Shown piece by piece: positions 11,281 through 63,937 of a stretch of 64,000 nucleotides of DNA. Each line of letters opens with the position of its first letter. Positions within the stretch are counted from its first letter, which is position 1. The position numbers were made by a program, and so were the translations under genes. Source of the DNA: an uncultured Solirubrobacterales bacterium (GTDB lineage Bacteria > Actinomycetota > Thermoleophilia > Solirubrobacterales > JBBDJG01); contig CAVZDP010000009.1 of assembly GCA_963774075.1 (NCBI GenBank), forward strand, positions 171,103 to 235,102. Direction: 5' to 3'. The notes beneath the pieces were generated by a model. That model had not been told where the DNA came from, made no database searches, and saw only the letters and a program-made list of their open reading frames with translations.

Positions 11281-11296
11281 GCATGAGGGGGCAACA

Positions 11297-14200
11297 ATGA
11301 CGAAGCGACTAAAACTCTTTTCGAGTCTCGTCCTCGCGACCGGCCTCTTGGCCGTGCTCGCGCCCTCACAGGCCGCAGCACACCCCGATCCCGACTGCAC
11401 CGCCCTCGGCGGCGTGATCACGCTCGCCGACGAGTGCGAGGTTCAGTCGAGCCAGACGGCCAAGGCCGGCACCTACAACATCTTCCACACGCTGATCATC
11501 AAGGCCGGCGTCCAGATCGACGCCACCACGCCCGGCACGGGCGGCATCACGATCAACATCAGTGGCGCCGGCAACGACCTGGTGATGGAGTCGGGCAGCG
11601 CGATCGAGGCAAACGACCCCTCGAGCCCCCCTAACGACAGCGCCCGCCCGATCACGATCACGGTTCCCGACGACATGACGATGATGGCCGGCAGCACGCT
11701 GGCGGAGAACAACTCTCAGGGCGGCTCGGGCGCCGACATCAGCCTGACGATCGGCGACGACTTCACGATGCAGTCGGGCTCGGAGATCTCGAGCTCGCGC
11801 AATGCCGGCACCACGACCGGCTCCGGCGGCGACATCGCGATCGACGTCGGCGGCGACATGCTGATGGAGGCCAACACCATCATCCACGCCGATGGCCAGA
11901 ACCCGGCCGCAGGCGACGTCACGATCAACGTCGACGGCGACATGACGATGAAGGGCACCGCCGGCCCGCTCGCCGGGGCCATCATCTCCGCCACGGGCAG
12001 CTTCGGCGACACCGCCGGCGACATCACGATCCACGTCGGCAACTTCCCCAACATCCCGCCCACGGGCGTCTTCACTCAGGAGACCGGCGCGGTCGTGACC
12101 GCGAGCTCGGGTGGGCCGGCTGGCGAGATCATCATCACCGCCGGCCGGGAGATGTCGGTCGACGGCTCCGTGCTCTCGGAGTCCGGTCAATCGGGCACCG
12201 GAGCCATCCAGCCGCCCGGCGGCGGCCCGATCACGCTCCAGGCGGGCTGCGGGCTCACCGTCTCCGACACCGGCCTCGTCTCCTCCAGGGGACAGGATCC
12301 GGGCGCCGACCTCGTCCACCTCGAGGCCTGCGAGGTCTTGATCCAGGGCGTCGTTCGCTCCTTCGCACCTGGCGCGGGACACGTGATCCCGACCGGCGGC
12401 AACCGCTGCAACGACGACACCACCGCCCACCCCACCAACGGCGCCGCGGGCTTCACGGGCTGCGTTGAGATCTGGGCCAAGAACGTCACGATCGACAACA
12501 CCGGCACCCACAACGGCGAGGTCCACACCGACGGCATCCGCAACCCGATGCGGGGCTGGGTCGACGTCTTCGCCCAGAAGGACGTCTCGATCCTGGGCGA
12601 CCCGACCACGCCCTACCCGACCACCTTCGACGCCAACGCCTTCGTCTACACCCCGCCCTACGCGGTGCACGCCAACGCCTGCCCGGCAAGCGACGGCCAG
12701 GCGCCCTGCTCGAACTCCTTCGGCGGCCTGATCACGGTCAAGTCGCTCGATGGCAAGGTCGCAGCCTCCGGGCGCGCCCTGCAGGCGACCGCCACCGCGC
12801 TCGGCGCAGACGGCGGTGACATCGTCGTCGAGGCGGGCGGAGCGGCTCCGGCGGGCGAGGTCGACCTCGACAGCGCGAGCCTGCAGGCGACCGGGCCCTC
12901 GGGCTCCAACACCGCCGGCGGCTCGGTCAGCGTTCGCTCCTGGGAGGACGACGTGCTCGGCGTCCCGCCGGGCGAGATCAAGGTCGCCGGCGACGGTCTC
13001 ACCGATCCCGGCACGATCACCCTCACCGCCTGCATGGACGTCAACTACACAGGCTCCACCGATCGCACCCCGACCGTCAACGAGGGTGCACCCTTCTGCG
13101 GCACTGGGCCGACGATTCCGGCCAGCGTGCTCTCCAACTTTGCGCTCCGCGCAGCGCTCTGGGACGCCTGCGACCCCCAGGAGGGAGTGAAGAAGGGCCA
13201 GAAGTTCAACGACCTCGACGGTGACGGCGTCAAGGACGCTGGCGAGCCGGGCCTACCGAACTGGACCATCCACATCTTCGGCACCACCAACGACAACGTG
13301 GTCGTCCACGAGGACATCCTCACCGACGCCAACGGCAACTACGAGATCACCCTTCCCCCCGGCACCTACACCGCCTGCGAGGAGCTTCAGACGGGCTGGG
13401 TGCAGACCTTCCCGAACCCCGGAAGCGACGGCAACGCCTGCGAGGGCCACAACCACCTCGGCAGCCCCGGCGCTGCCGGCTACACGTTCACGATCGTCGG
13501 TGGAGATACCCACGAGGGGAACGACTTTGGGAACCGCGAGAAGCCGCTCGAGTGCCCCGAGGACCCGGGTCGGGCCTCCTCGATCACGAGGATGGTCGAC
13601 GAGGACGGCACCTCGCACGCGGTGTCGGTGCCGAACCACCTGACCGTGCAGGAGGCCTACAACGCCGCCCAGGCCAGCGGCAACCCGAACGAGGTCATCG
13701 GCATGTTCTCCGAGACGACCGAGAACGTCGTCCTCAACGGGCCGAAGCGGGTGACCATCACGCAGTGCACGACCGCCAAGGTCACCGCAGCCGACAATTC
13801 GAAGCCGGTCTGGGACATCGGGCTCGGCGCCGGGCGCCTGCTGATCGTTGGCCCCGACTCCGTCGGCGGGACGATCGGCTGGAACGTCGCCGGCAACGGC
13901 CACGAGCTCAAGGGGCTGCGGGCCGAGGGCGCGAGCCAGTACGGCATTCGGGTGCTCGGCAACAACAACTCCGTCAGCTACAACTCGGTCGACACGAGCC
14001 CTGTCGGGATTCGAGTCGAGGGCGATTACACCGACCTTCGCGGCGGCACGGTCGAGAGGAACACCGGCGATGGCGTCCAGCTCGGCTCGACGGCCAACAA
14101 CAACACGTTCCGGACGGCGAACGTCCAGAGCAACGGCGGGAACGGGATCCTCGTCGAGGGCCCGACCAACACGATTCGCGACAACGGCCGGATCGACCTC

Positions 14201-14629
14201 AACACCCTGAACGGGATCCTCGTCGCGAGCGCCGGCAACACGATCCTCAACAACTCCGCCGCGAGCGACAACAACAAGGGCAACGGTCAGGACGGATTCA
14301 AGGTAACCGGGCCCAACAACTCCATAGAGAACAACAGGGCAAGCGACAACGGCGGCGACGGATTCGACGTCGGCGGCGGCTCGAGCAGCGCACTTGCGAA
14401 CAAGCTGAAGAACAACCAGAGCAACCTGACGGGGGTAGGCGGCACGAAGGAGAACACGGGGGCTGAGTACCGCCTCCTCAACTGGGTGAAGAACAACGCC
14501 GGCGGCAACAAGGCCGACGGGATCGTCGTGCCCAAGACCACGAGCCCGACGAAGTGCAACTCGGCCGCCACTCAATTCCCGGCCACCAACGCGACATCCA
14601 ACTTCACGACGGCGCAGGCCTGCGAGTAG
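11297..14629 (+). CDS. Giant secreted surface protein 2 (signal peptide, beta-helix-like N-terminal domain, SdrD-B/prealbumin-like domain, PbH1 C-terminal cassette A)
   Basis: ATG at 11297 (MTKRLKLFSSLVLATGLLAVLAPSQAAA, signal-like) follows a GAGGGGG RBS. Contains GGxITINIxG-type repeats and KFNDLDGDGVKDAGEPGLPNWTIHIF (SdrD B-like). C-terminal NxxGDGxxV repeats. Tail is KCNSAATQFPATN...ACE. Confidence 0.85.
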   Translation: MTKRLKLFSSLVLATGLLAVLAPSQAAAHPDPDCTALGGVITLADECEVQSSQTAKAGTYNIFHTLIIKAGVQIDATTPGTGGITINISGAGNDLVMESGSAIEANDPSSPPNDSARPITITVPDDMTMMAGSTLAENNSQGGSGADISLTIGDDFTMQSGSEISSSRNAGTTTGSGGDIAIDVGGDMLMEANTIIHADGQNPAAGDVTINVDGDMTMKGTAGPLAGAIISATGSFGDTAGDITIHVGNFPNIPPTGVFTQETGAVVTASSGGPAGEIIITAGREMSVDGSVLSESGQSGTGAIQPPGGGPITLQAGCGLTVSDTGLVSSRGQDPGADLVHLEACEVLIQGVVRSFAPGAGHVIPTGGNRCNDDTTAHPTNGAAGFTGCVEIWAKNVTIDNTGTHNGEVHTDGIRNPMRGWVDVFAQKDVSILGDPTTPYPTTFDANAFVYTPPYAVHANACPASDGQAPCSNSFGGLITVKSLDGKVAASGRALQATATALGADGGDIVVEAGGAAPAGEVDLDSASLQATGPSGSNTAGGSVSVRSWEDDVLGVPPGEIKVAGDGLTDPGTITLTACMDVNYTGSTDRTPTVNEGAPFCGTGPTIPASVLSNFALRAALWDACDPQEGVKKGQKFNDLDGDGVKDAGEPGLPNWTIHIFGTTNDNVVVHEDILTDANGNYEITLPPGTYTACEELQTGWVQTFPNPGSDGNACEGHNHLGSPGAAGYTFTIVGGDTHEGNDFGNREKPLECPEDPGRASSITRMVDEDGTSHAVSVPNHLTVQEAYNAAQASGNPNEVIGMFSETTENVVLNGPKRVTITQCTTAKVTAADNSKPVWDIGLGAGRLLIVGPDSVGGTIGWNVAGNGHELKGLRAEGASQYGIRVLGNNNSVSYNSVDTSPVGIRVEGDYTDLRGGTVERNTGDGVQLGSTANNNTFRTANVQSNGGNGILVEGPTNTIRDNGRIDLNTLNGILVASAGNTILNNSAASDNNKGNGQDGFKVTGPNNSIENNRASDNGGDGFDVGGGSSSALANKLKNNQSNLTGVGGTKENTGAEYRLLNWVKNNAGGNKADGIVVPKTTSPTKCNSAATQFPATNATSNFTTAQACE
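11327..13534 (+). repeat. Copy A of a 2208-bp perfect segmental duplication (offset 3360 bp)
   Basis: Matches 14687-16894. Identical translations in all frames listed in the ORF track. The first mismatches are at 11318/11323/11326 on the 5' side and at 13535 on the 3' side. Confidence 0.9.
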
Positions 14630-14656: not shown

Positions 14657-17600
14657 ATGACGAAGCGACTAAAACTCCTTTCAAGCCTCGTCCTCGCGAC
14701 CGGCCTCTTGGCCGTGCTCGCGCCCTCACAGGCCGCAGCACACCCCGATCCCGACTGCACCGCCCTCGGCGGCGTGATCACGCTCGCCGACGAGTGCGAG
14801 GTTCAGTCGAGCCAGACGGCCAAGGCCGGCACCTACAACATCTTCCACACGCTGATCATCAAGGCCGGCGTCCAGATCGACGCCACCACGCCCGGCACGG
14901 GCGGCATCACGATCAACATCAGTGGCGCCGGCAACGACCTGGTGATGGAGTCGGGCAGCGCGATCGAGGCAAACGACCCCTCGAGCCCCCCTAACGACAG
15001 CGCCCGCCCGATCACGATCACGGTTCCCGACGACATGACGATGATGGCCGGCAGCACGCTGGCGGAGAACAACTCTCAGGGCGGCTCGGGCGCCGACATC
15101 AGCCTGACGATCGGCGACGACTTCACGATGCAGTCGGGCTCGGAGATCTCGAGCTCGCGCAATGCCGGCACCACGACCGGCTCCGGCGGCGACATCGCGA
15201 TCGACGTCGGCGGCGACATGCTGATGGAGGCCAACACCATCATCCACGCCGATGGCCAGAACCCGGCCGCAGGCGACGTCACGATCAACGTCGACGGCGA
15301 CATGACGATGAAGGGCACCGCCGGCCCGCTCGCCGGGGCCATCATCTCCGCCACGGGCAGCTTCGGCGACACCGCCGGCGACATCACGATCCACGTCGGC
15401 AACTTCCCCAACATCCCGCCCACGGGCGTCTTCACTCAGGAGACCGGCGCGGTCGTGACCGCGAGCTCGGGTGGGCCGGCTGGCGAGATCATCATCACCG
15501 CCGGCCGGGAGATGTCGGTCGACGGCTCCGTGCTCTCGGAGTCCGGTCAATCGGGCACCGGAGCCATCCAGCCGCCCGGCGGCGGCCCGATCACGCTCCA
15601 GGCGGGCTGCGGGCTCACCGTCTCCGACACCGGCCTCGTCTCCTCCAGGGGACAGGATCCGGGCGCCGACCTCGTCCACCTCGAGGCCTGCGAGGTCTTG
15701 ATCCAGGGCGTCGTTCGCTCCTTCGCACCTGGCGCGGGACACGTGATCCCGACCGGCGGCAACCGCTGCAACGACGACACCACCGCCCACCCCACCAACG
15801 GCGCCGCGGGCTTCACGGGCTGCGTTGAGATCTGGGCCAAGAACGTCACGATCGACAACACCGGCACCCACAACGGCGAGGTCCACACCGACGGCATCCG
15901 CAACCCGATGCGGGGCTGGGTCGACGTCTTCGCCCAGAAGGACGTCTCGATCCTGGGCGACCCGACCACGCCCTACCCGACCACCTTCGACGCCAACGCC
16001 TTCGTCTACACCCCGCCCTACGCGGTGCACGCCAACGCCTGCCCGGCAAGCGACGGCCAGGCGCCCTGCTCGAACTCCTTCGGCGGCCTGATCACGGTCA
16101 AGTCGCTCGATGGCAAGGTCGCAGCCTCCGGGCGCGCCCTGCAGGCGACCGCCACCGCGCTCGGCGCAGACGGCGGTGACATCGTCGTCGAGGCGGGCGG
16201 AGCGGCTCCGGCGGGCGAGGTCGACCTCGACAGCGCGAGCCTGCAGGCGACCGGGCCCTCGGGCTCCAACACCGCCGGCGGCTCGGTCAGCGTTCGCTCC
16301 TGGGAGGACGACGTGCTCGGCGTCCCGCCGGGCGAGATCAAGGTCGCCGGCGACGGTCTCACCGATCCCGGCACGATCACCCTCACCGCCTGCATGGACG
16401 TCAACTACACAGGCTCCACCGATCGCACCCCGACCGTCAACGAGGGTGCACCCTTCTGCGGCACTGGGCCGACGATTCCGGCCAGCGTGCTCTCCAACTT
16501 TGCGCTCCGCGCAGCGCTCTGGGACGCCTGCGACCCCCAGGAGGGAGTGAAGAAGGGCCAGAAGTTCAACGACCTCGACGGTGACGGCGTCAAGGACGCT
16601 GGCGAGCCGGGCCTACCGAACTGGACCATCCACATCTTCGGCACCACCAACGACAACGTGGTCGTCCACGAGGACATCCTCACCGACGCCAACGGCAACT
16701 ACGAGATCACCCTTCCCCCCGGCACCTACACCGCCTGCGAGGAGCTTCAGACGGGCTGGGTGCAGACCTTCCCGAACCCCGGAAGCGACGGCAACGCCTG
16801 CGAGGGCCACAACCACCTCGGCAGCCCCGGCGCTGCCGGCTACACGTTCACGATCGTCGGTGGAGATACCCACGAGGGGAACGACTTTGGGAACAGGAAG
16901 CTCGAGTGCGAGAAGGGCCCTGTCAAGGACGTGCTCAACCCGACGACTGGGCGCTTCCCCGGCAACGCAGGACCCGATGTGATCGTACGGATCGACCTCG
17001 GTCAGTCCGTCCAGGATGCTGTCGACAACGTCAGCGACGTCAACGGCGACCAGAAGCTCATCATCTTGGTCCTCAAGGACGGGACGGGGCAGCTCGGCGG
17101 GCACACGAGCCAGGAAGTCGTCATCGACGACGCCTACAGCCTGCCGTTCGGCCTGATCGGCTGCAGCGTGACGCTTCACGATCCGACCCCCAATGACGCC
17201 AACCCGACGATCCGCATCGCATCCTCTGCTGGAAGCCCACAGAACATCTTCCTGATGGACCTCCATGCTGCGGACAGCAAGGCCGCGGGCATCGCGGTCG
17301 AGGGCAATGGCCGCTACCTGCGTAACGAGAACGTCCTCAACAACGCGGTCGGCTTCAAGATCACCGGCAACGCCAACACCGTCCACAACGGCGCGGCGAC
17401 GGGCAACACCGGTGCCGGTGCCAACGTCCAGGGCGACAGCAACGTGCTCACGGACACCGACTCCTACTCGAACGGCGTCGGCTTCCAGGTCACGGGCAAC
17501 AACAACCAGCTCCTCAAGCTCGACGCAGGAGACAAGGGCAAGGGGAACCTCGGCGACGGCGTCAACGTCAACGGCGCCAACAACCTGTTGTCCGAGATCG

Positions 17601-18052
17601 GGGCCTTCGCCAACGGCGGCGACGGCATCGACGTCACCGGCAACACCAACCGCCTGCTGAAGAACGTCGCCGGCGACTCGGGCAAGGGCAACGGGGCCGA
17701 CGGCATTCACCTCGCGGGCTCCGGGGCGACGATTCAGGAGAACAAGGCCAGCAGCAACAAGACGACCAGCACGACCGGTGACGGGTTCGACATCAGCGGC
17801 GGCGTGAGCGCCGCTCCGAACAAGCTGAAGAACAACTCCAGCAACACCGGATCCTCGGGAAGCTCGACCCACGAGAACGGCGGCGCAGAGTACCGCCTGC
17901 TCAACTACGTGCGAAACGACGGGGGTGGCAACAAGGCCGACGGCGTAGTCGTCCCCAAGACGACGAGCCCGGTGAAGTGCAATGCCGGCGCCACTCAGTT
18001 CCCGGCCATGAATGTCACGCTCAACCTCATGTCGGCGACCGCGTGCGAGTAG
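14657..18052 (+). CDS. Giant secreted surface protein 3 (N-terminal ~745 aa identical to protein 2, different PbH1 C-terminal cassette B)
   Basis: 1131-aa ORF starting MTKRLKLLSSLVLATG. Diverges from gene 2 right after ...HEGNDFGN. C-terminal tail KCNAGATQFPAMN...ACE is homologous to the gene 2 tail. Confidence 0.85.
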   Translation: MTKRLKLLSSLVLATGLLAVLAPSQAAAHPDPDCTALGGVITLADECEVQSSQTAKAGTYNIFHTLIIKAGVQIDATTPGTGGITINISGAGNDLVMESGSAIEANDPSSPPNDSARPITITVPDDMTMMAGSTLAENNSQGGSGADISLTIGDDFTMQSGSEISSSRNAGTTTGSGGDIAIDVGGDMLMEANTIIHADGQNPAAGDVTINVDGDMTMKGTAGPLAGAIISATGSFGDTAGDITIHVGNFPNIPPTGVFTQETGAVVTASSGGPAGEIIITAGREMSVDGSVLSESGQSGTGAIQPPGGGPITLQAGCGLTVSDTGLVSSRGQDPGADLVHLEACEVLIQGVVRSFAPGAGHVIPTGGNRCNDDTTAHPTNGAAGFTGCVEIWAKNVTIDNTGTHNGEVHTDGIRNPMRGWVDVFAQKDVSILGDPTTPYPTTFDANAFVYTPPYAVHANACPASDGQAPCSNSFGGLITVKSLDGKVAASGRALQATATALGADGGDIVVEAGGAAPAGEVDLDSASLQATGPSGSNTAGGSVSVRSWEDDVLGVPPGEIKVAGDGLTDPGTITLTACMDVNYTGSTDRTPTVNEGAPFCGTGPTIPASVLSNFALRAALWDACDPQEGVKKGQKFNDLDGDGVKDAGEPGLPNWTIHIFGTTNDNVVVHEDILTDANGNYEITLPPGTYTACEELQTGWVQTFPNPGSDGNACEGHNHLGSPGAAGYTFTIVGGDTHEGNDFGNRKLECEKGPVKDVLNPTTGRFPGNAGPDVIVRIDLGQSVQDAVDNVSDVNGDQKLIILVLKDGTGQLGGHTSQEVVIDDAYSLPFGLIGCSVTLHDPTPNDANPTIRIASSAGSPQNIFLMDLHAADSKAAGIAVEGNGRYLRNENVLNNAVGFKITGNANTVHNGAATGNTGAGANVQGDSNVLTDTDSYSNGVGFQVTGNNNQLLKLDAGDKGKGNLGDGVNVNGANNLLSEIGAFANGGDGIDVTGNTNRLLKNVAGDSGKGNGADGIHLAGSGATIQENKASSNKTTSTTGDGFDISGGVSAAPNKLKNNSSNTGSSGSSTHENGGAEYRLLNYVRNDGGGNKADGVVVPKTTSPVKCNAGATQFPAMNVTLNLMSATACE
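14687..16894 (+). repeat. Copy B of the 2208-bp perfect segmental duplication
   Basis: See 11327-13534. Confidence 0.9.
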
Positions 18053-53734: not shown

Positions 53735-54022
53735 ATGTCGATCGAAGCCACGCAACCAGAGTTCAAGTCGCCGAAGGAGATCGCGAGCCTTTGCGGCCTA
53801 TCGCCAAGAGCGATCTACCGGGCGATCAGCCGCGGCGAGCTCCGCGCAACCAGGCTGTGTGGGCGGCTTCGGTGCAGGACAGTCGACGTCGAGGAGTGGA
53901 TCGAGCGGAACCTCGTCAAACCTGCGCCAATTCTGAAACGACTTCGCCACGACGACCATGCGACTGCCACCGACCGCGGTAGCCTCCGGCGCATGCTGCG
54001 TTCGGGAGCGGATGACCGATGA
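53735..54022 (+). CDS. Excisionase-family helix-turn-helix DNA-binding protein
   Basis: KEIASLCGLSPRAIYRAISRGELRATRL...VDVEEWIE. The stop overlaps the integrase ATG (ATGA at 54019-54022). Confidence 0.7.
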   Translation: MSIEATQPEFKSPKEIASLCGLSPRAIYRAISRGELRATRLCGRLRCRTVDVEEWIERNLVKPAPILKRLRHDDHATATDRGSLRRMLRSGADDR

Positions 54023-55264
54023 GCATTGAACGGATCAAGCGTAAGGGCAGCGTGGTTTGGCGCGTGCGCTGGCGCGACAACAGCGGACGGGAGCACTCGC
54101 GGGTCCTGGGCAGAAAGCGGGACGCCGAGTCGTTCGACGCCGAGATCAGGCGTCGAAAGCGAGCCGGTGATCTAGACGTCGTCGACGCCAGCAAGCAGAC
54201 GCTGGCGGAGTTCGTTGAGGAGTGGTGGAGGCTGTATGCGCAACCTAACCTTGCGCCGGCAACTCTCAAGCTGTACGCGATGCTCTGGGACAAACACGTT
54301 CTTCCGCAGCTGGGCGCCCTTCGGCTTCGGGACCTCACCCCCGAACGGATCGAGCAGTTTCGTGCCCGCCTGGTTGCCGCAGGTGCCGGTCCGGTTTCGA
54401 TCCGCAGGGCGCTCGTTCTGCTCCAAGGCGTCCTTCAGCGCGCGGTCGAGTGGCAACGGATCCCACACAACCCCGCTCGTCTCGTTAGGAAGCCGCCGGC
54501 GGGGCGGAGGAGGGCGGTGCGGGCAATTGCGCCGGAGACGATCGAACGCATGCGAGCGTGGCTCCTAGAGCGGGGCCAGCACTGGGATGCTGTGCTCCTG
54601 TCGCTGCTCGCCTACTCCGGCCTTCGCCCCGGCGAGGCGTTGGCACTCACGTGGGGACACCTCAGGGAGCGCACGCTCTTGGTCGAGCAGGCCGTCTCGC
54701 ATGGCGAAGGTCAAGGCGACAAAGACAGGCCAGACACGCACGGTGCGCCTGCTCAAGCCGCTCGCCTCGGATCTGAGCGAATGGCGACTTGCATCCCGAC
54801 GACCGGCCGCAAACGTCCTGCTGTTCCAGGCTTACAACGGAGGTTGCTGGAGCCGAGACGACTGGGCGAATTGGCGGACACGTGTTTTCGGTCCCGCTGC
54901 TGCGGCCGCCGGCCTCGAGAAGACGCGTCCGTACGACCTCCGCCACAGCTTCTGCTCGCTTCTGATCCACGAGGGCGCCACGGTCGTCGAGGTTGCGCGG
55001 CAGCTCGGTCACGCGCCGACGATGACGCTCAACACATACGGACACGTCTTCGACGAGCTCCAGGGCGCCGAGCGGTTGTCCGCAGAGGAGCAGATCCGCA
55101 GAGCACGCGCAAAGCATGTGTCCGTTTTGTGTCCGTCTGAGGCCGCTCGACTCCTACCTAACGAGCAAGAGTCAGCAAAACCCCCGCAAAGCGATAGTGG
55201 GCGGTGCCTGGCTCGAACAGGCGACCTCCTGCTTGTAAGGCAGGCGCTCTCCCAACTGAGCTAA
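54019..55264 (+). pseudogene. Tyrosine recombinase/phage-type integrase, one frameshift near 54703
   Basis: ORF 54019..55140 reads the SAM-like N-domain up to ...LVEQAVSHGE. The catalytic half (VKATKTGQTRTVRLL...RPYDLRHSF...LGHAPTMTLNTYGHV) is in the +1 frame (ORF 54587..55264). That ORF's tail runs into the tRNA-Val gene. Confidence 0.7.
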
Positions 55265-55270
55265 CCGCCC
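55198..55270 (-). tRNA. tRNA-Val (anticodon TAC)
   Basis: Hand-folded 73-nt cloverleaf: GGGCGGT-TA-GCTC-AGTTGGGA-GAGC-G-CCTGC-CTTACAA-GCAGG-AGGTC-GCCTG-TTCGAGC-CAGGC-ACCGCCC-A. All four stems are fully paired. CCA is not encoded. Confidence 0.9.
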
Positions 55271-55877: not shown

Positions 55878-56300
55878 ATGTCGCACGAGAACGTGGAGCT
55901 GGCACGGCGGGGGTACGAGCTGTTCAACGCCAGGGACCTAACGGCGTTCTTCGATGTGTTCGACTCGGGCTTGGTCTATCGGAACCGCACCGACGAGCCC
56001 GACGCTCGGGTGTACCACGGGCTTGAGGACTTCAAGGGATACGTTGCCACCTGGCTGGACACATTCGACGATCTGCGGTTTGAGGTTCACGAGGTCGTCA
56101 ACCTCGGCGACCGGGTCGTGGTCGTGACCGATCTGCTCGGTCGCGGCCGTGAAACCGGCGCGGATGTTCGCGGGGCATATGTGTTCCTGTGGGCGATTCG
56201 CGAGGGACGGGCGGTCGACATACGGGAGTACGGCACGAAAGAGGAAGCCCTCGAAGCCGCGGGGGTGGCGGAGCAAGACGCTCGCAGCTCGTCAGGCTAG
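55878..56300 (+). CDS. NTF2/SnoaL-like small protein (EALEAAG tail family)
   Basis: ATG at 55878 (MSHENVELARRGYELFN). C-terminus KEEALEAAGVAEQDARS. Confidence 0.75.
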   Translation: MSHENVELARRGYELFNARDLTAFFDVFDSGLVYRNRTDEPDARVYHGLEDFKGYVATWLDTFDDLRFEVHEVVNLGDRVVVVTDLLGRGRETGADVRGAYVFLWAIREGRAVDIREYGTKEEALEAAGVAEQDARSSSG

Positions 56301-56471: not shown

Positions 56472-57314
56472 TTACGGGGCGAAGATCCCCTGCGCCAGGA
56501 ACTTCCTCTCGTCGCCGGTGCCGCACGTCGTCGGGCACATGAAACCTGCGGGAGCTATCTCCCCGTCGGGCCCAGAGTCGAACACCCTCACGTTCAGGAC
56601 CTCGATGGAGGCACGCTGGAACTCCTTGATCATTCCCGGTATCAGTGAGTCGAACGTCGTTCCAGCCAAGACCTTGCAATTTCCAGCGGGAGCAGCGGTG
56701 CAAGCCGCGGTCGGGAACTGAAACGGGATATCCGACACGGTTGCGGTGAGGCACGGCGCCACACCCGCACCGTTCGTGCAGGTGGTTCCAGAGGGGTTGC
56801 CACTGGAGTGGTCGGTGATACGGATCACCGACTCCACGATCAGCTGGCCCGTGTAGGGAGCGCCGGCCCCGGTACAGGTGCCGTTGGCGTTGGCGCCCTG
56901 GCAGCGCACGTCGCTGTGCTCAGCGAAGAGGATCCTGAAGTTCTCCTGGTCCCCGGCTTGGTCGAGACACGGCGGCGGCCCATTCGACGGCAATTCGCAG
57001 ATGAGGTCGAAACGAACCCTGCCTTGCCCCTGGCCCGTGCTTTGCAACGTCAAGTTGCTCGACTTGAGGTTCGGCGGACACGAAGGGAACATGTGCGGCG
57101 GCACGTGGGACTGCCCGGGGGGCGGAGTGGTAGGTGCCGGGTCATCCGCCGTAGCGGGCCCCCCACACTTGTTGAACGCTGCCACCAGCGGCACCCGCAA
57201 CGGAGTGCCCCCGCCTGGGCGGGGGTGTGTTGCAAGCGCCACGCTGCCAAGCCCAAGTGCCAACAAGGAACTGAGGGCAAGCGAAACCCCCACCTTCTTA
57301 CTGATTGCGTTCAT
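56472..57314 (-). CDS. Secreted Cys-rich protein, unassigned family, paralog P1
   Basis: Signal peptide MNAISKKVGVSLALSSLLALGLGSVALA. The mature part starts THPRPGGGTPLRVPLV..F..C and ends CPTTCGTGDERKFLAQGIFAP. 16 Cys. Confidence 0.75.
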   Translation of the reverse strand: MNAISKKVGVSLALSSLLALGLGSVALATHPRPGGGTPLRVPLVAAFNKCGGPATADDPAPTTPPPGQSHVPPHMFPSCPPNLKSSNLTLQSTGQGQGRVRFDLICELPSNGPPPCLDQAGDQENFRILFAEHSDVRCQGANANGTCTGAGAPYTGQLIVESVIRITDHSSGNPSGTTCTNGAGVAPCLTATVSDIPFQFPTAACTAAPAGNCKVLAGTTFDSLIPGMIKEFQRASIEVLNVRVFDSGPDGEIAPAGFMCPTTCGTGDERKFLAQGIFAP

Positions 57315-57433
57315 GTTGCACCGTTCCCTCCTGATCCCCGGGAGAACAGCGACCTCGCGCCCCTGTCGGGAGTCTCATAGCGGTCGGCACTGCCGATCGC
57401 CACACTTTTTCACAGACAGGGTGCAACTGCCAA
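57315..57433 (-). promoter_or_regulatory. Conserved 5' leader of P1 with predicted SD/start-codon sequestering helices
   Basis: On the RNA strand, GUUGCACC (complement of 57420-57427) can pair with GGUGCAAC directly 5' of the AUG (57315-57322). CUCCCGA (57366-57372) can pair with the SD region UCAGGAG (57328-57334). A near-identical 34-nt block is shared with the P2 leader. Confidence 0.5.
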
Positions 57434-58082
57434 CCGGATACGCAAATCCTCTTCCTTTCGTCCTCGATGGCTCCCATCAGCTCGGCGGCGCGAAAGAGGC
57501 AAAAACCGGCCAGCCTCGCGTCACCCGTCTTGATGGCTTTGTCCAACGACCGTTCAGCTCCCGACAACTCCCGATACGCCGTGTTGCTGCGATGGGTTAG
57601 TGCCTCGCTAATTTCCCGCTTGCACGCTCGTTCCAGCTCGCCGCTCCAATCGGTTTCGTCGCCACAATTCGCGAAGTTCGGGACACGGGCCTCGTAAGCG
57701 CCATGGGTGCAGGGTAAATGTCGGGCAGTTGGCCCAGTGCATCGACTACTCGGCCGTCCTCCATGAAACCGACGATCCCGCCCGCGAGGCCCATCTGTGC
57801 GAGCTGTAGCAGGTTGTTTGCTGCTGACTCCCGTTCGACCTCTGTGGGCGGCCTTTCCTGTGTCGTGCCCCCGGCGGTTCCGATCGCGCGATCAGCTCGT
57901 CGTGTTTGTCTCGCGCCATGTCGAGATCCTTGGCCGCCCGTTGCAGAGACTTGACCCAGCGGCTCAAGGTGTCTAGGTAAAGGGCGGGGGAGTGGGAGCT
58001 TCCGCGCGGCCTGTCATATCCATATATGGCAGGCTCAGAGATTTGAGAGGTCAGGGCGCCCCTGCGGGATACTGCGCGGACG

Positions 58083-58478
58083 ATGCCGCAGGAGAACGTG
58101 GAGGTCGCACGAGCTTTCGCCGAGGCTTGGAACACAGGAGACATGTACACCGTCCGCGAGCTGCACCACCCGGACGTCATCATGAGGGTCATAGAGGGTG
58201 TCCCTGAGCCAGGTCCCTTCGTAGGGCGCGAGGCGGTCATGCGGCAGTTCGAACTACTCCGTGAGGCTTGGGACACGGACAGAATCGAACACATCACCGA
58301 CTTCATCGACGCGGGTGACCGAGTCGTCGTGAGAGTCGCCTGGCATGTCGTAGGCCGGGGACCCGAGACAACTCTGGAGTTCACGATTGTCTACACAATG
58401 CGCAAGGGCCGGATCTTCCACCAGGAACACTTCAGGGATCACGCCGAGGCCCTCGAAGCCGTGGGGCTCTCGGAGTAG
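58083..58478 (+). CDS. NTF2/SnoaL-like small protein (EALEAVGL tail family)
   Basis: MPQENVEVARAFAEAWN...; C-terminus HAEALEAVGLSE. Confidence 0.75.
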   Translation: MPQENVEVARAFAEAWNTGDMYTVRELHHPDVIMRVIEGVPEPGPFVGREAVMRQFELLREAWDTDRIEHITDFIDAGDRVVVRVAWHVVGRGPETTLEFTIVYTMRKGRIFHQEHFRDHAEALEAVGLSE

Positions 58479-58481
58479 CCG

Positions 58482-58910
58482 ATGTCGCGGGAGAACGTGG
58501 AGGCACTGCGCCGGCTGTACGGTGAGTGGGCAAAGGGCGATCTGTGGGCTCTGCGCGAACTTGCCGACCCGAACATCGAGTGGGAGTGGTCGGCAGCGAT
58601 GGCGAGCATCGTTGGCGGGCCACGCATCTATCCCGGGCTTGACGAGGTCGGCGCGGCCACTCTCGAGTGGATTCAGTTCTGGGACTTCTACTGGATGACC
58701 GCCGAGGACTTCATCGAGGCTGACGATGAGATCGTCGTGCCCATGCGGCTCCACGCCCGGACAGCTAGTACCGACAGCGTGCTCGAGCAGCGCATCACGG
58801 CGGTGTGGACGTTTCGCAACGGAAGAGCCGTGCGTGTGCGCTATTACGACGAAAAGGCCGAAGCCCTCGAAGCCGTCGGGCTATCGGAGCAAGACGCTCG
58901 CAGCCAGTGA
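58482..58910 (+). CDS. NTF2/SnoaL-like small protein (EALEAVGL tail family)
   Basis: MSRENVEALRRLYGEW...; C-terminus KAEALEAVGLSEQDARSQ. Starts 3 nt after the previous stop. Confidence 0.75.
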   Translation: MSRENVEALRRLYGEWAKGDLWALRELADPNIEWEWSAAMASIVGGPRIYPGLDEVGAATLEWIQFWDFYWMTAEDFIEADDEIVVPMRLHARTASTDSVLEQRITAVWTFRNGRAVRVRYYDEKAEALEAVGLSEQDARSQ

Positions 58911-59013
58911 GCTAGAGCCTTCTAGGGGCCTCAAGCCAGGAGAAAGTTTCAGGGGGCAAAAGGGCAAGGGTCAGTCAGCCGTTCGAAGGCCCGTACAGGA
59001 CGGCAGGAAAAGT

Positions 59014-59043
59014 GAAGGCCGGGATCGAATCGCCCCGGCCTTC
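59014..59043. terminator. Perfect 10-bp stem / 10-nt loop hairpin between convergent genes (possible bidirectional terminator)
   Basis: GAAGGCCGGG-atcgaatcgc-CCCGGCCTTC. Lies between the 58910 (+) and 59081 (-) gene ends. No clear U-tract. Confidence 0.45.
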
Positions 59044-59080
59044 CTCATGCGCTTGCCCTGCTTTAACGCTCCTCCTTGGT

Positions 59081-59893
59081 TTACGGCAGGAAGGTCCCCG
59101 TGCTCAGGAACGCTGTCTCGTCCCCCGTCCCGCTCCCACCGCCAACGTCCCCGTCAGGGCCGGCATCCTGCACGATGATGCCACCGGGTACCTGCTCAAG
59201 CGAGACATCAACCCCGGGGATGGGCTCCCCCGCCATTTGCAGCTCCCGCTGGCCTTCCTTGATGACGCCCGGAAGGTGCGAGTTGAATGTGGTGTTCAGG
59301 CTGCAAGTAGCGCCGGCGGAAGTAGGGGTGGCCGTACACGAGACCGGCACCCCGAACGCGACCCACCTGGTGCTGGCGGTCGTGCAACCGGCACCGGAGG
59401 GAACCGCGCAGACAGTTGGGTTCGCATGGCCGGTGATCCGCAACCCGAGCCGAGCGATCAGTTGGCCTGTGTAGTCCGCTGCAGGTGCCGTGCAGCCCGG
59501 AATGGCGCCGACCGCGCAGCGCACGTCCGTCGCGCTCACTGTGATCCTCTGATCCATCTGGTCTCCGGCCGCGGGGCAGGGCGGCAGCTCGGCGTTGGTG
59601 CAGAAGACGTCAAGCCGCATCGAAGCGTTCATCTGTCCCGCGACTCCCGTCGTCAGGACCGGTGAGCTCAGCGACGTGGGGCTACAGGACGGCACCGTGA
59701 GCGGCGCCGTGTGCGTTGTGTTAGGCGTTTCATCATCACCGCAAGCCTTGAACACTGGTACCAACGGCACCCGAAGCGGCGTGCCTCCGCCTGGGCGGGG
59801 GTGCGTTGCAAGCGCCACGCTGGTAAGCCCAAGGGCGAGAAACGCCCCGAGGGCAAGCGAAAGCGCCATTCTCTTCTTCTGTATTGCGGCCAT
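59081..59893 (-). CDS. Secreted Cys-rich protein, unassigned family, paralog P2
   Basis: Signal peptide MAAIQKKRMALSLALGAFLALGLTSVALA, then THPRPGGGTPLRVPLVPVFKAC. Ends GTGDETAFLSTGTFLP. The terminal CxxxC of P1/P3 is replaced by GGGS. Confidence 0.7.
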   Translation of the reverse strand: MAAIQKKRMALSLALGAFLALGLTSVALATHPRPGGGTPLRVPLVPVFKACGDDETPNTTHTAPLTVPSCSPTSLSSPVLTTGVAGQMNASMRLDVFCTNAELPPCPAAGDQMDQRITVSATDVRCAVGAIPGCTAPAADYTGQLIARLGLRITGHANPTVCAVPSGAGCTTASTRWVAFGVPVSCTATPTSAGATCSLNTTFNSHLPGVIKEGQRELQMAGEPIPGVDVSLEQVPGGIIVQDAGPDGDVGGGSGTGDETAFLSTGTFLP

Positions 59894-60089
59894 GCTGCAC
59901 CGTTTCCCTCCCGATCCCCCCGGATACCAGCGGCCTTGCGGCCCCCGTCGGGAGTCTCATAGCGGTCGGCACTGTCGGTCCCTAGAGACGGACGCTCCGC
60001 TGTGTTCGGCAGGAGCGGCTGAGAGTGCCCTGAGCGGCCACCCTTTCACACACAAGGTGCAACTGCCAATGGAATATTCAGATGTATCC
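59894..60089 (-). promoter_or_regulatory. Conserved 5' leader of P2 (same blocks as the P1 leader plus a ~55-nt insertion)
   Basis: GUUGCACC (60076-60083) pairs with GGUGCAGC (59894-59901), where an A-to-G change keeps a U-G wobble. CUCCCGA pairs perfectly with UCGGGAG in the SD region. A GGCC-GCAA-GGCC tetraloop hairpin lies between them. Confidence 0.5.
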
Positions 60090-60208
60090 GATCGTATGAC
60101 AACCGATCGAATGGACTTTCGCGGCAAAACAGCCGTCCATCGGCAACCTCTGCGCCTCCGGAGTAGATTGACCGGGGGGAGCTCTCGATCGAACGCAAAT
60201 GGGGGGTC

Positions 60209-61825
60209 ATGAGCCCGCATGCTGAGTCTGGATCGCTGCGTCTTTGCCTCATCGTCGGCCTGGTCCTCGCAGGTGCTTTCGCTTGGGCGCCGAGCGCCGC
60301 CCACGGATTCGGCTTCACGACCACCCACCACCGCGCCGGCATCGACGCCCACGACGTCGCTACTGGAGACTTCAACGGCGACTCGCGCAGCGACCTCGCG
60401 GTCGTGAATGTCACTTCCAGGGACGTCTCCATTCTGCTCGCCACCGCTAGCGGTGGTTTCACGGGGCCAGTCAGCTACGGAGTCGGCAATACACCGACGA
60501 CGGTCGCGGTCGCCGACTACGACGAGGACGGCAACGCGGACCTGGCCGTCGCCAACCGCGGATCCGACGACGTCTCGATCTTGCTCGGAAGAGGCGACGG
60601 GACGTTCGAACCAGATTCCCCCACAAGAAGGTTCGTGGCCGGCGCGAGCCCGTTCTGGGTCGTAGCGGCCGACTTCGACAACGACCACCACCTGGACCTC
60701 GCGGTCAGCAACTATCTCGGAATAGACGCCGAGGGCCGTGTCTCGATCCTTCGCGGTAGCGGCGATGGAACGTTCACCGCCGGTCCACAGGGCTCCTTAG
60801 CAGTCGGCCTTGGGCCGGAGGAGCTCGCGGAAGGGGACTTCAACAGCGACGGTGACCTCGACCTCGCCGTGACCAACTATTTCGAAGAACACGTGTCTGT
60901 CCTTCTCGGAAACGGCGACGGCAGCTTCGAGTACGTCAACGCAAACAACGGGCGCGTCTTCACCGGACAGCTCCCGATCGGCGTCACGGTTGGCGACTTG
61001 AACCACGATGCCAAGGACGACCTCGCAGTCGCGAACTATGGGGCGATCGATCTCAACCGCGGCTCCGTGGCTGTCCTGTTGGGCGATGGAGCGGGCGGTT
61101 TTTCAGCGCCGCACCAATACGTGCTCGACCATCAACCGATGTCGATCGCCGTTGCCGACTACGACGGCGATTCTCACCCAGACCTTGCCACCGCGTATCA
61201 GGCCTACGAGGAAGAGCCGGGGATCTTCGACGCGCACTCTGTCGTCTGGATACTGCTCGGCGAGGGAGGCGGCACGTTCTCGCCGTTCGAGTACTTCGAC
61301 GTCGGCAGCGGACCGTCGGCGATTGCCGCCGGTGACTTCAACATCGACGGCCATCCGGACCTCGCGGTCGCCAACAACGGCACGGAAGCGGGCGACAACG
61401 ATGCGTCCGTGTTGCGCAACACGAGCAATAACCCACCCGACTGTTCAAAGGTAGGTCCGGCCCCGGCTCTTCTTTGGCCTCCGAACCACCAGTACCGTCC
61501 CATCGCGCTCGTGGGAGCCACCGATCCCGAACGCGATCAGGTCACGCTCACGATCACGGGCGTGACCCAGGACGAGCCGCTGAACGGCCGTGGTGACGGC
61601 AACACTTCTCCTGACGCGAAACGAGCCACTCCGTCCAACCAGGTCTATGTTCGCTCCGAGCGCAGCGGGCTGAGCGACGGGCGCGTCTACCGGATCGCGT
61701 TTACGGGCTCGGACGGCAAGGGAGGCACTTGCTCCGGCACGGCGCTAGCGGTCGCAGTTCCGCACGGGCGTGGTTCGACCGCGGTTGACTCGGCGCCTTC
61801 AAGCTACAACTCGTTCGGCCCATGA
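60209..61825 (+). CDS. FG-GAP/VCBS repeat protein with a C-terminal WPPNH-motif domain, secreted
   Basis: Signal-like N-terminus. Repeated DFNGDxxxDLAVxN...VSILLGxGDGxF units (beta-propeller blades). C-terminal LLWPPNHQYRPIAL...DEPLNGRGDGNTSPD...GRVYRIAF. Confidence 0.8.
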   Translation: MSPHAESGSLRLCLIVGLVLAGAFAWAPSAAHGFGFTTTHHRAGIDAHDVATGDFNGDSRSDLAVVNVTSRDVSILLATASGGFTGPVSYGVGNTPTTVAVADYDEDGNADLAVANRGSDDVSILLGRGDGTFEPDSPTRRFVAGASPFWVVAADFDNDHHLDLAVSNYLGIDAEGRVSILRGSGDGTFTAGPQGSLAVGLGPEELAEGDFNSDGDLDLAVTNYFEEHVSVLLGNGDGSFEYVNANNGRVFTGQLPIGVTVGDLNHDAKDDLAVANYGAIDLNRGSVAVLLGDGAGGFSAPHQYVLDHQPMSIAVADYDGDSHPDLATAYQAYEEEPGIFDAHSVVWILLGEGGGTFSPFEYFDVGSGPSAIAAGDFNIDGHPDLAVANNGTEAGDNDASVLRNTSNNPPDCSKVGPAPALLWPPNHQYRPIALVGATDPERDQVTLTITGVTQDEPLNGRGDGNTSPDAKRATPSNQVYVRSERSGLSDGRVYRIAFTGSDGKGGTCSGTALAVAVPHGRGSTAVDSAPSSYNSFGP

Positions 61826-61840: not shown

Positions 61841-63937
61841 CTACGGGAGGAAAGCGCCCTGGCGCAGAAAGACCGCCTCGTCGCCAGTGCCGCAGGTCGG
61901 CGGGCAGCCGGAGGCGGGGTCAATGGTCGCGTCGCGCCCAGCGTCCTTGACTGCGACCGAGAAGGCCGCGATCACTGCCCGCGCGCCCTCGCGGGCAAAA
62001 CCTGGGATGAGCGTGTCTAGGGTCGTTGAAAATTCGCAGCTCCCACCTAGAGTGTTCCGCGTCTGCGGATCCGGCTGAGGGGTCGACACGCAGTTCATGG
62101 GCACTGCGAACGCCGCGTCCTCCATGGTGGCGGGGGCGTGCGGCGCCCAGGAATCGGTGATCCTCATCTCGGTCGCGAGCAAGAGCTGCCCCACGTAGTC
62201 CGAATCATCGACCTGGTTCCTCACGTCCCTGATCGTCACCTTGAGCGCCACGTCCGCCTCATCCTCTGGGGTGGACGGGTTCCCGACAGCGACGTCGAAA
62301 CGTGCACCGGCGGTCGCCTTGCCCAGCGACGAAGTCGTGAGCAGCTCCGACTCCATTCCTGTATTCGAGCAGGAGGGGGAGTCGAGGGGCGGAGCGTGCG
62401 TGGAGTCGGATGAATCACAGTGGCTGAACTCCGGTACAAGGGGCACTCTCAGCGGAGTTGCTCCCCCGGGCCGCGGAAACCTTGGGTGCCGGGCATCCAT
62501 GCCGGCTCGCAAGGCCGAGCGACTTAGGACACCGGGTTGTACGGGGTACGCCCGATATGTCGACGCGCCGTTCTGAAATGCCAGGCTGTAAACGCGGCTG
62601 CCTGAAGGCGTGAGTTCGGTGACGAGGGGATTTCCGCCCCAGGCCATGACCCAGTTGCCGCCGGGGAGCTTGCGCGCGCTGCCGCAGCAGCCCGCGGTTA
62701 CGGTTCCCGGATCGTTTACTTGCTCGAGCAAGGTGGCGGTTCTCGTGATCGGGTCGATCTCGTAGCGGATCGCCCGGGGTGTTCGCCTGAGCGTCGGGTG
62801 GAAGCCGTTGTCGTGGACCGACACTGTGCCGTCGCCTAGTACCCGTGCGTCATGCCCGCCCCAAGGCCCACTGCCGGAATCGCCTACGGTCGCGAGGCTC
62901 TCGACGCGCGGCGTACCGCCAATCTTCCATTCAACATCGCCGGTGGCCTTACTGATCTTGTAGACCGCGTCGAGGTGGCGGAATGAAAGTACGAAGGCGC
63001 CTCCATCCGGCTCTGCCGAGTTGAAGTGGTACGGGTCGTAGATTCCGGTGTTTGCTCCGATGTTGAGGATTTGGTTACACCACTCGATGGGGATCTCGGA
63101 GAGCGGGATGTGGTCCGACGGATACCACGACCACACGAGCAAGCCGTCGGCCGCGATTTCCTGGATCCCGGTGTCCCTGATGGTTAGATCCGATCGCCCG
63201 CAGAGGCTGAAGCCGGGCCGGTTCACGTTTGCGCCCAACAGGTAGTTGCCATTCGGCAGCAGTAGGAACTCGTGAAAGTCGGTCGCAGCCCCTACCGCAT
63301 CGAGCGTTCGCACAAGCGAGCCGTCAAATTGGCGCTCCTCGGCGCCCGATGTGACCGGGGGGTTGTGAGACCAGCCAAGGTTGCCGTTTCGCAGCAGCAG
63401 AGAGGCACCGGGACCTTCAACGCCGTGCATCCACCAGACCGGCACACCGTTGGTGTCAAAGATCGCGACGATTCCCGCTTGCCCTTGAAGCGGGGTTCCC
63501 CTCCGGCTAACGATGTACCACTCGGCCTGCGGTTGGCCGGAGAGCTCGGACGTCCAGGTCCAGAAGTCCGCGGGCAAGCAGCGCACGTAGTAGGTCCCTG
63601 TGGTACTTCCGCCGGATGTCGTGGTGACGGTGAAGCTCTCGCCCGCGGCGAGGCTGACGTAGGCGCTGAACGTCCCGCTTCGCGGCGGCTGGGTGTCCAC
63701 CGCCACCTCGGTGCCCGGTGGCGCTGACACAGAGACCTGCACCGGGGTGCCCTCCGTGCAGCGGGTCACGTAGTCGCTGACCGCGACCTCGAAGGTCGGG
63801 TAGAGCGATGGTTGGGCGGAGATCTCGACCTGCTCGGTGTCTGCTTGCGTGACGGCCGCGAAGATGCTGCCCGTGACGCAGATCCAAGCCAATATCACCA
63901 AAGAGGCGGTCAGCGGGCGAGTCCACACCCTTCTCAA
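61841..63937 (-). CDS. Fusion of an arylsulfotransferase (ASST)-like beta-propeller with the P-family Cys-rich C-terminal domain (paralog P3)
   Basis: TTG start at 63937 after GGGGAG, with a signal/TM N-terminus. Propeller-type motifs FHEFLLLPNGNYLL, DPYHFNSAEPDG, WKIGGTP and HDARVLGDGTVSVHDNG. The C-terminal 235 aa starts RFPRPGGATPLRVPLVPEFSHC and ends CPPTCGTGDEAVFLRQGAFLP. Confidence 0.7.
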   Translation of the reverse strand: MRRVWTRPLTASLVILAWICVTGSIFAAVTQADTEQVEISAQPSLYPTFEVAVSDYVTRCTEGTPVQVSVSAPPGTEVAVDTQPPRSGTFSAYVSLAAGESFTVTTTSGGSTTGTYYVRCLPADFWTWTSELSGQPQAEWYIVSRRGTPLQGQAGIVAIFDTNGVPVWWMHGVEGPGASLLLRNGNLGWSHNPPVTSGAEERQFDGSLVRTLDAVGAATDFHEFLLLPNGNYLLGANVNRPGFSLCGRSDLTIRDTGIQEIAADGLLVWSWYPSDHIPLSEIPIEWCNQILNIGANTGIYDPYHFNSAEPDGGAFVLSFRHLDAVYKISKATGDVEWKIGGTPRVESLATVGDSGSGPWGGHDARVLGDGTVSVHDNGFHPTLRRTPRAIRYEIDPITRTATLLEQVNDPGTVTAGCCGSARKLPGGNWVMAWGGNPLVTELTPSGSRVYSLAFQNGASTYRAYPVQPGVLSRSALRAGMDARHPRFPRPGGATPLRVPLVPEFSHCDSSDSTHAPPLDSPSCSNTGMESELLTTSSLGKATAGARFDVAVGNPSTPEDEADVALKVTIRDVRNQVDDSDYVGQLLLATEMRITDSWAPHAPATMEDAAFAVPMNCVSTPQPDPQTRNTLGGSCEFSTTLDTLIPGFAREGARAVIAAFSVAVKDAGRDATIDPASGCPPTCGTGDEAVFLRQGAFLP

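Follow-up and report, generated by a model that had tools for sequence, protein, structure and literature searches.

The window, by which we mean the whole stretch of 64,000 nucleotides that was analysed, carries on its minus strand two paralogous genes, P1 and P2, which encode secreted proteins of an unannotated family (Table 1). A preliminary description of this DNA had reported three blocks of similarity, B1, B2 and B3, in the untranslated regions directly upstream of both genes, and these blocks were confirmed on the minus strand. The shared upstream similarity of P1 and P2 is real; the two upstream regions are referred to below as leaders.

Table 1. Coordinates of the P1 and P2 genes and of the features upstream of them (positions in the window).
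Feature	Position	Strand	Remarks
P1 gene	56472–57314	minus	secreted, 280 aa, family unannotated; ATHPRPGGGTPLRVPLV motif after the signal peptide; from the ORF list
P2 gene	59081–59893	minus	270-aa paralog of P1, 46% amino acid identity; signal peptide and ATHPRPGGGTPLRVPLV motif
P1 upstream region (leader)	57315–57433	minus	holds B1, B2 and B3
P2 upstream region (leader)	59894–60069	minus	holds B1, B2 and B3, plus 54 extra nt between B1 and B2
B1 of P1	57403–57433	minus	-35-like TTGGCA 57428–57433; 18-nt spacer ending TGa; -10-like AAAAGT 57404–57409
GUUGCACC within B1 of P1	57420–57427	minus	complementary to 57315–57322
B1 of P2	60039–60069	minus	TTGGCA 60064–60069; 18-nt spacer with TG; AAGGGT 60040–60045; GUUGCACC 60056–60063
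B2 of P1, CAGTGCCGACCGCTATGAGACTCCCGACAGGGG	57360–57392	minus	sole block conserved above the local baseline
B2 of P2	59942–59974	minus	one A-to-G change relative to P1
B3 of P1	57312–57342	minus	SD GGAGGG 57326–57331; GGUGCAAC 57315–57322; ATG 57312–57314
B3 of P2	59891–59923	minus	SD GGAGGG 59906–59911; GGUGCAGC 59894–59901; ATG 59891–59893
P2-only 54-nt segment between B1 and B2	59985–60038	minus	hairpin possible, CGCUCC...GGAGCG, read from the sequence
Alternative promoter-like site, P2 only, upstream of B1	60073–60102	minus	TTGTCA-N18-AATATT; predicted start at the 5' edge of B1

No Pfam domain was detected in P1 or P2. Two homology searches returned 53 and 80 matches, the best being only 52–56% identical to P1 or P2, and the family pools about 100 members; those that could be traced to a genome all belong to Solirubrobacterales MAGs, and most of the others come from JGI metagenomes. 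Three histidines (H30, H70, H169), a tyrosine (Y154) and eight cysteines are invariant across the family (P1, P2 and homologs P0001–P0105). The AlphaFold model of the protein is a beta-sandwich (pLDDT 72), for which a Foldseek search of the PDB retrieved nothing at E ≤ 0.001. The P domain (residues ~31–280) occurs a third time in the window, as the C-terminus of a protein of 698 aa that also has an arylsulfotransferase (ASST) domain and is encoded at 61841–63937 on the minus strand; this copy is 35–36% identical to P1 and P2, and its upstream region lies beyond the window edge.

The neighborhood of the two genes shows several features of its own. Genes encoding SnoaL_2-domain proteins (55890–56300, 58083–58478 and 58482–58910, plus strand) are convergent with the P genes, and a SnoaL_2 gene is found near the P homologs of the homolog locus L011 too. 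The intergenic DNA downstream of both P modules contains a common terminator arm, CGGCCTTCACTTT, together with the block TTTCTCCnGGCTTGrGGCCCC. The terminator hairpin that follows P2 (59014–59043, minus strand), formed by GAAGGCCGGGG...CCCGGCCTTC with a T-rich tail behind it, is very similar to the one located after a P-family gene in the metagenome locus L021 (~318–350), and this predicted terminator is conserved in sequence across these distant family members. Next to the P1 module, a tRNA gene (55198–55270, minus strand) adjoins a tyrosine integrase, the Pfam domains of which are split over two frames (54019–55140 and 54587–55264), an arrangement suggestive of what is left of an integrative element. 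The DNA upstream of P1 (57434–58000, minus strand) holds ORF fragments in three frames, resembling one frameshifted gene remnant with no Pfam match, and one of these frames passes through B1 and B2 without a stop. Elsewhere in the window, two adjacent plus-strand ORFs (11234–14629 and 14657–18052), each of exactly 1131 aa and with antisense ORFs of matching lengths, point to a large gene duplicated in tandem.

The P1 and P2 leaders are identical in 97 of 119 aligned columns (82%), and this identity is unevenly distributed. B1 is the same at 27 of 31 positions and B2 at 32 of 33; B3 sequences are alike only if indels of 1–2 nt are allowed. The 54-nt indel falls between B1 and B2, the spacing of which varies by that length, whereas the distance from B2 to the ATG is almost constant (78 vs. 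81 nt). A sliding identity profile rises from a background of 30–50% to above 80% at B1, reaches its maximum in B2, declines to 57–67% before the ATG and peaks again (87–93%) over codons ~20–45. A 28-mer of B2 has two exact matches in the window and none in 100 shuffles, and both BLAST and a covariance model found just two copies of the blocks in the window. The second copy, placed earlier at 59894–60089, extends as far as 60069; beyond this point only 8 of the next 12 nucleotides upstream match. The statement that the non-coding sequence is better conserved than the coding one holds true for the gene body, but not for the first ~48 codons, where nucleotide identity is 87–93%.

This pattern is at odds with the relationship of the encoded proteins. 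P1 and P2 are each 54–56% identical to foreign homologs as compared to 47% to each other, and they appear as sisters in only 5–11% of neighbor-joining bootstraps. Where the two genes specify the same amino acid, they use the same codon in 24 of 32 cases within the first 48 codons vs. 45 of 82 further downstream (Fisher p = 0.037); the corresponding value in eleven other pairs of family members is ~0.47, which the first 48 codons exceed with a binomial p of 0.001. It seems that the leader and the signal-peptide region share a more recent common ancestor than the gene bodies. Judging by the local synonymous excess and the discordant phylogeny, gene conversion is the likely cause of this homogenization, with modest support for the conversion signal (p = 0.037); selection on the RNA of the 5' coding region may be an alternative cause of the synonymous likeness. 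This suggests that much of the contrast between non-coding and coding sequence arises because the 5' region was homogenized.

We set the baseline for block conservation at 75%, a value taken from nearby synonymous sites. Conservation of B1 does not exceed it significantly (p = 0.08). In contrast, B2 is conserved above the baseline (p = 0.0007) and also above the other leader positions, 65 of 86 of which are identical (Fisher p = 0.007). Because B2 surpasses both the rest of the leader and the synonymous baseline, some cis-acting constraint on this block is likely. That B2 is constrained is the sole firm conclusion to be drawn about the upstream region.

In search of relatives of the leaders, 21 homolog loci were retrieved and compared. 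Their upstream regions are of other types, some of them conserved within a type, and none of the 21 contains the P1/P2 blocks. A covariance model spanning B2 to the ATG (R1), run against the window and 18 loci, gave significant matches only to the two window copies (E from 1e-23 to 1e-25), the next best match having an E-value of 0.8; the covariance-model search proposed earlier as a check thus returned no further leader homologs, and no covariation was seen. No exact B2 20-mer occurs in the metagenome or viral collections, and local alignments of the P1/P2 leaders with nine other leaders of the family do not score above shuffles. By eye, the "type B" leaders of L007, L010, L012 and L013 appeared to share CAGYGSCGACC..TATGRG, AGGGAC and GTTG..CTGTG with P1 and P2; this likeness was discarded, as z did not exceed 1.2 in any of 18 comparisons with dinucleotide shuffles and R1 gave no match there. 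Pairing between the 5' end and the initiation region was likewise rejected as a family-wide trait, being above shuffles only in L011 and P2. Since no relatives of the blocks were found, the P1/P2 element stands as an orphan, and the present data do not permit an analysis of covariation.

The homolog loci have conserved upstream sites of their own. In L007 (~1281–1300) and L010 (~503–520), both of the P1 clade, a CRP-like TGTGA-N6-TCAC sequence is positioned just upstream of a TTGAC -35 element, and the promoter regions of these two loci contain a repeated AATCTTCAC motif. In turn, L001, L011 (~2790–2802), L017 (~4845–4860) and L019 (~237–250) share TGTTCTAGAACA, a perfect or near-perfect palindrome, along with the block GCCAGTATAG; both are located ~150–250 nt upstream of the homologs, between these and a divergent HemolysinCabind gene. 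This conserved site is probably an operator.

Two nested pairings had been put forward for the leaders, one between B1 and the segment immediately preceding the AUG, the other between B2 and the SD sequence. The complement underlying the former exists in both copies, where GUUGCACC:GGUGCAAC forms a perfect 8-bp match in P1 and its P2 counterpart includes one U·G pair; in RNAalifold predictions the helix grows to 10 pairs that incorporate the U and G of the AUG. The latter fared less well: B2 CUCCCGA is perfectly complementary over 7 bp (UCGGGAG) to the SD segment in P2, but in P1 the pairing is interrupted by a central C·A mismatch, and partition-function folding assigns it a probability of 0 in P1 and 0.05–0.14 in P2. 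With 12 nt of coding sequence included, the B1:B3 helix has a probability of ~1.0 in P2 and 0.47 in P1; extending the coding part to 18 nt nearly abolishes it in P1, the summed pair probability of 1.4 being no better than in shuffles. Pairing of the P2 5' end with the initiation region is above shuffles (p = 0.007), and the helix is robustly predicted in P2 only. A run of eight Watson-Crick pairs joining the first 30 to the last 28 nt is rare in shuffles of P1 (p = 0.008; about 0.008–0.02), yet once G·U pairs are permitted p becomes 0.15 in both copies. Folding of P1 also yields an extra helix, CCCUGUC:GACAGGG, with a probability of 0.9 (0 in P2). It contains the single B2 difference and both B1 differences outside the -10-like hexamer; two of these three differences are compatible with wobble pairing and one breaks an end pair.

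Other tests for a regulatory RNA gave little. None of the 26 consensus pairs shows a compensatory change between P1 and P2, and the minimum free energies of the two leaders are not significant (z = -1.47 and -0.68). The energy needed to open the initiation region of P1 or P2 is not above that of dinucleotide-shuffled upstream sequence (z = 1.0 and 1.2 with B1 transcribed, 1.0 and -0.1 without it); the occlusion of the ribosome site, originally envisaged for both translation signals, does not stand out from shuffled controls. If transcripts begin after B1, P1 and P2 are predicted to fold differently, with no common conserved fold. Several inner folds possible in both leaders were considered, namely a GNRA hairpin (GCGA/GCAA) between B2 and B3, a hairpin in the 5' half of B2 and the pairing CAGUGCC:GGYCGCUG, and were set aside, as they are not predicted consistently in both copies. 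A terminator-like hairpin on the plus strand at 57380–57400 is absent from P2 and thus not conserved. At gathering thresholds, the only Rfam 15 match in the whole window is the tRNA, and a permissive scan (E ≤ 10) of 57200–60300 produced four matches at chance level, none of them in the minus-strand leaders; the Rfam check proposed for the leaders hence matched no family even at E ≤ 10. Recurrence in diverged genomes together with covariation, the hallmarks of a riboswitch or another conserved class of cis-regulatory RNA, was not observed. Nor do the leaders qualify as ROSE or fourU thermometers: they match no Rfam family and precede genes for secreted proteins without a Pfam family. A leader peptide was also rejected. 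The ATG in B2 opens the reading frame MRLPTGA in both copies, but lacks an SD sequence, and the frames diverge after residue 7, continuing for 26 vs. 73 codons to overlap the genes in a different frame.

B1 resembles a promoter. It consists of TTGGCA, an 18-nt spacer ending in TG-a, and AAAAGT (P1) or AAGGGT (P2); compared with the sigma-70 consensus, the -35 element matches TTGACA at 5 of 6 positions, the extended -10 TG is present, and A2 and T6 of the hexamer are kept. The two B1 copies differ at four positions, all in the spacer or at -10 positions 3–4, and none of these differences affects the -35 element, the TG, A2 or T6. By a simple promoter score requiring A2 and T6, B1 of P1 outranks every other promoter-like site within the 245 nt preceding the gene; its score of 9 is reached in 3% of shuffles, and sites scoring at least 9 number eight in the whole window when both strands are counted (128 kb of strand). 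No convincing promoter was found upstream of B1 in P1. B1 of P2 scores 8, a value common in shuffles, and ranks below TTGTCA-N18-AATATT. Position 1 of the B1 hexamer is A instead of the usual T. The homolog loci have, as read from their sequences, canonical promoters of like geometry, e.g., TTGACG-N18-TAGGTT after GTGTGc, and the region upstream of the tRNA gene in the window contains the hexamer TAAACT, read by eye as a -10 element. Our literature search for promoters or transcription start sites of Solirubrobacterales found nothing. If B1 is a promoter, GUUGCACC lies in its spacer, outside the RNA, and is therefore unable to pair. Two further candidates were dismissed: a sigma-54 promoter in TGGCAGTTGCA, where GG and GC are 5 nt apart instead of 10, and a CRP-type site in P1, TGTGA-N6-GTGGC, the right half of which is mismatched.

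These data can be read in more than one way. We consider it somewhat doubtful that the leaders act as structured RNA, in which transcription would start at B1 or just ahead of it, the 5'-terminal CA-GUUGCACC would pair with GGUGCARC-A-UG and mask the start codon, and B2 would be a recognition element for a ligand, protein or small RNA that shifts the fold and frees the ribosome site. The complement (8 bp, or 10 with CA:UG) is kept in both copies, its lone A-to-G difference preserving a U·G pair, yet no pair carries a compensatory change; the p of 0.008 for the Watson-Crick run in P1 stands beside one of 0.15 with G·U pairs. The helix probabilities (~1.0 in P2, 0.47 in P1) and the significant pairing in P2 speak for this structure, but in P1 the helix nearly vanishes with 18 nt of coding sequence, B2:SD pairing is close to 0 in P1 owing to the mismatch and low in P2, and neither the folding z-scores nor the opening energies are significant. 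The P1 helix CCCUGUC:GACAGGG accommodates three differences, two of them wobble-compatible, and has a probability of 0 in P2. As for the RNA start, TTGTCA-N18-AATATT predicts one at the edge of B1 in P2; in P1, no convincing promoter precedes B1. The 54-nt indel is situated at a place that could accommodate a variable hairpin; against the structured leader, no Rfam match and no further copies were found, and other leaders of the family lack an architecture joining the 5' end to the initiation region. Of the cis-regulatory RNA first suggested, what stands is that the blocks are real, that B2 is constrained and that B1 and B3 are complementary, while homologs, covariation, an Rfam match and a shared fold were not found. 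The bolder version, that the two leaders represent a new lineage-restricted cis-regulatory RNA in which B1 masks the start codon and the invariant B2 senses a ligand, protein or small RNA, thereby controlling secreted beta-sandwich proteins of Solirubrobacterales that are rich in Cys and His and form a family not described before, appears unlikely.

It is more unlikely still that the region holds no dedicated element at all, its likeness being mostly historical, i.e., a conversion tract or retained duplication over the leader and the signal-peptide region, with only the promoter and SD functional and B2 a short, more recent conversion patch. The raised synonymous identity in the first 48 codons and the conservation of B1 not significantly above the 75% neutral level would fit such a history, as would the patches shared by the flanks downstream of P1 and P2 and the absence of the blocks from all other family members examined. 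Yet, the excess of B2 over the remaining leader (32/33 vs. 65/86) does not fit, and the 54-nt indel and the patches of 57–67% identity break the tract, so that a single recent conversion explains it poorly. We regard as improbable that B2 is the core promoter, with TATGAG as the -10 element, an operator in the conserved spacer and B1 as an upstream activator site. Transcription would then start near 57366 and 59948, leaving a 5' UTR of ~52–55 nt in both genes, in keeping with the near-fixed distance of B2 from the ATG as opposed to that of B1, which varies by 54 nt; L021 has a TTGACG-N16-TATGGG sequence about as far ahead of its gene. TATGAG, however, lacks T at hexamer position 6, which is held critical in sigma-70 promoters, the -35 candidates TGGCGA and TAGGGA match TTGACA at only 3 of 6 positions, the site is not among the best promoter-like ones, and the likeness of B2 to other leaders of the family is not significant.

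The reading we favor, at a probability of roughly 0.4, is that the region constitutes a common promoter-plus-leader module of two secreted-protein paralogs, with B1 as the promoter and B2 as an early-transcribed, sequence-specific site. Gene conversion, or an exchange of 5' regions, would have homogenized the 5' ends of otherwise old paralogs. B1 would function as a sigma-70-type promoter with an extended TG and AAAAGT or AAGGGT as the -10 element, and transcription would begin near 57397 (P1) and 60033 (P2). B2 would lie in the early transcribed region and be recognized, either as an operator in the DNA or as a binding site in the RNA, by a putative trans-acting regulator that co-regulates P1 and P2, and the ribosome-binding region would engage in generic GC-rich pairing with no conserved switch. 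The promoter reading is preferred because a conserved block carries promoter geometry in both copies, and because an alternative promoter is missing from P1 and the two copies have no RNA fold in common; the sole datum that it leaves as coincidence is the 8-bp complement of B1 and B3. Against it count the A at hexamer position 1, where TAAACT upstream of the tRNA gene has T, the score of only 8 for B1 of P2 and the better-scoring P2 site just upstream. For B2, no dyad symmetry was found and no regulator was identified. The module appears to be specific to the source Solirubrobacterales genome.

The region was compared with known systems. Leaders that sequester the SD or AUG (ROSE, fourU, translational riboswitch platforms) are similar in being GC-rich, 120–180 nt long in the present case, and in offering an 8-nt complement to the pre-AUG segment as well as anti-SD-like CUCCC and UCUCC segments. 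Unlike them, the P1/P2 leaders match no Rfam family (E ≤ 10), have no conserved aptamer or hairpin set, show occlusion no stronger than shuffled sequence, occur as two copies in one genome, and precede genes for secreted proteins, not heat-shock or metabolic ones. An actinobacterial sigma-70-type promoter of the extended -10 kind agrees with B1 in TTGGCA (5 of 6), the 18-nt spacer, the TG one base before the hexamer, A2 and T6, and the P1/P2 homology begins near the -35 element; the deviations are A1 of the hexamer and a spacer more conserved than a promoter needs. Concerted evolution of paralog 5' regions is resembled in that the leader and the first ~48 codons are far more similar than the remainder, synonymous sites included, and the proteins are not sisters, but the tract is patchy (54-nt indel, diverged stretches) and B2 stands above its baseline. 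On the best reading, the region works as an ordinary promoter-plus-leader, and at most as an SD/AUG-sequestering leader.

In kind the upstream region is familiar, namely a cis-regulatory 5' region that paralogs have in common, here specific to one lineage, and as an orphan element present in two copies in one genome it leaves the general picture unchanged. Should B2 prove to be a true regulatory site, it would provide a handle on an uncharacterized family of secreted proteins confined to Solirubrobacterales-like soil bacteria, for which regulatory data are scarce, and the locus would be a clear example of concerted evolution preserving the common control region of paralogs.
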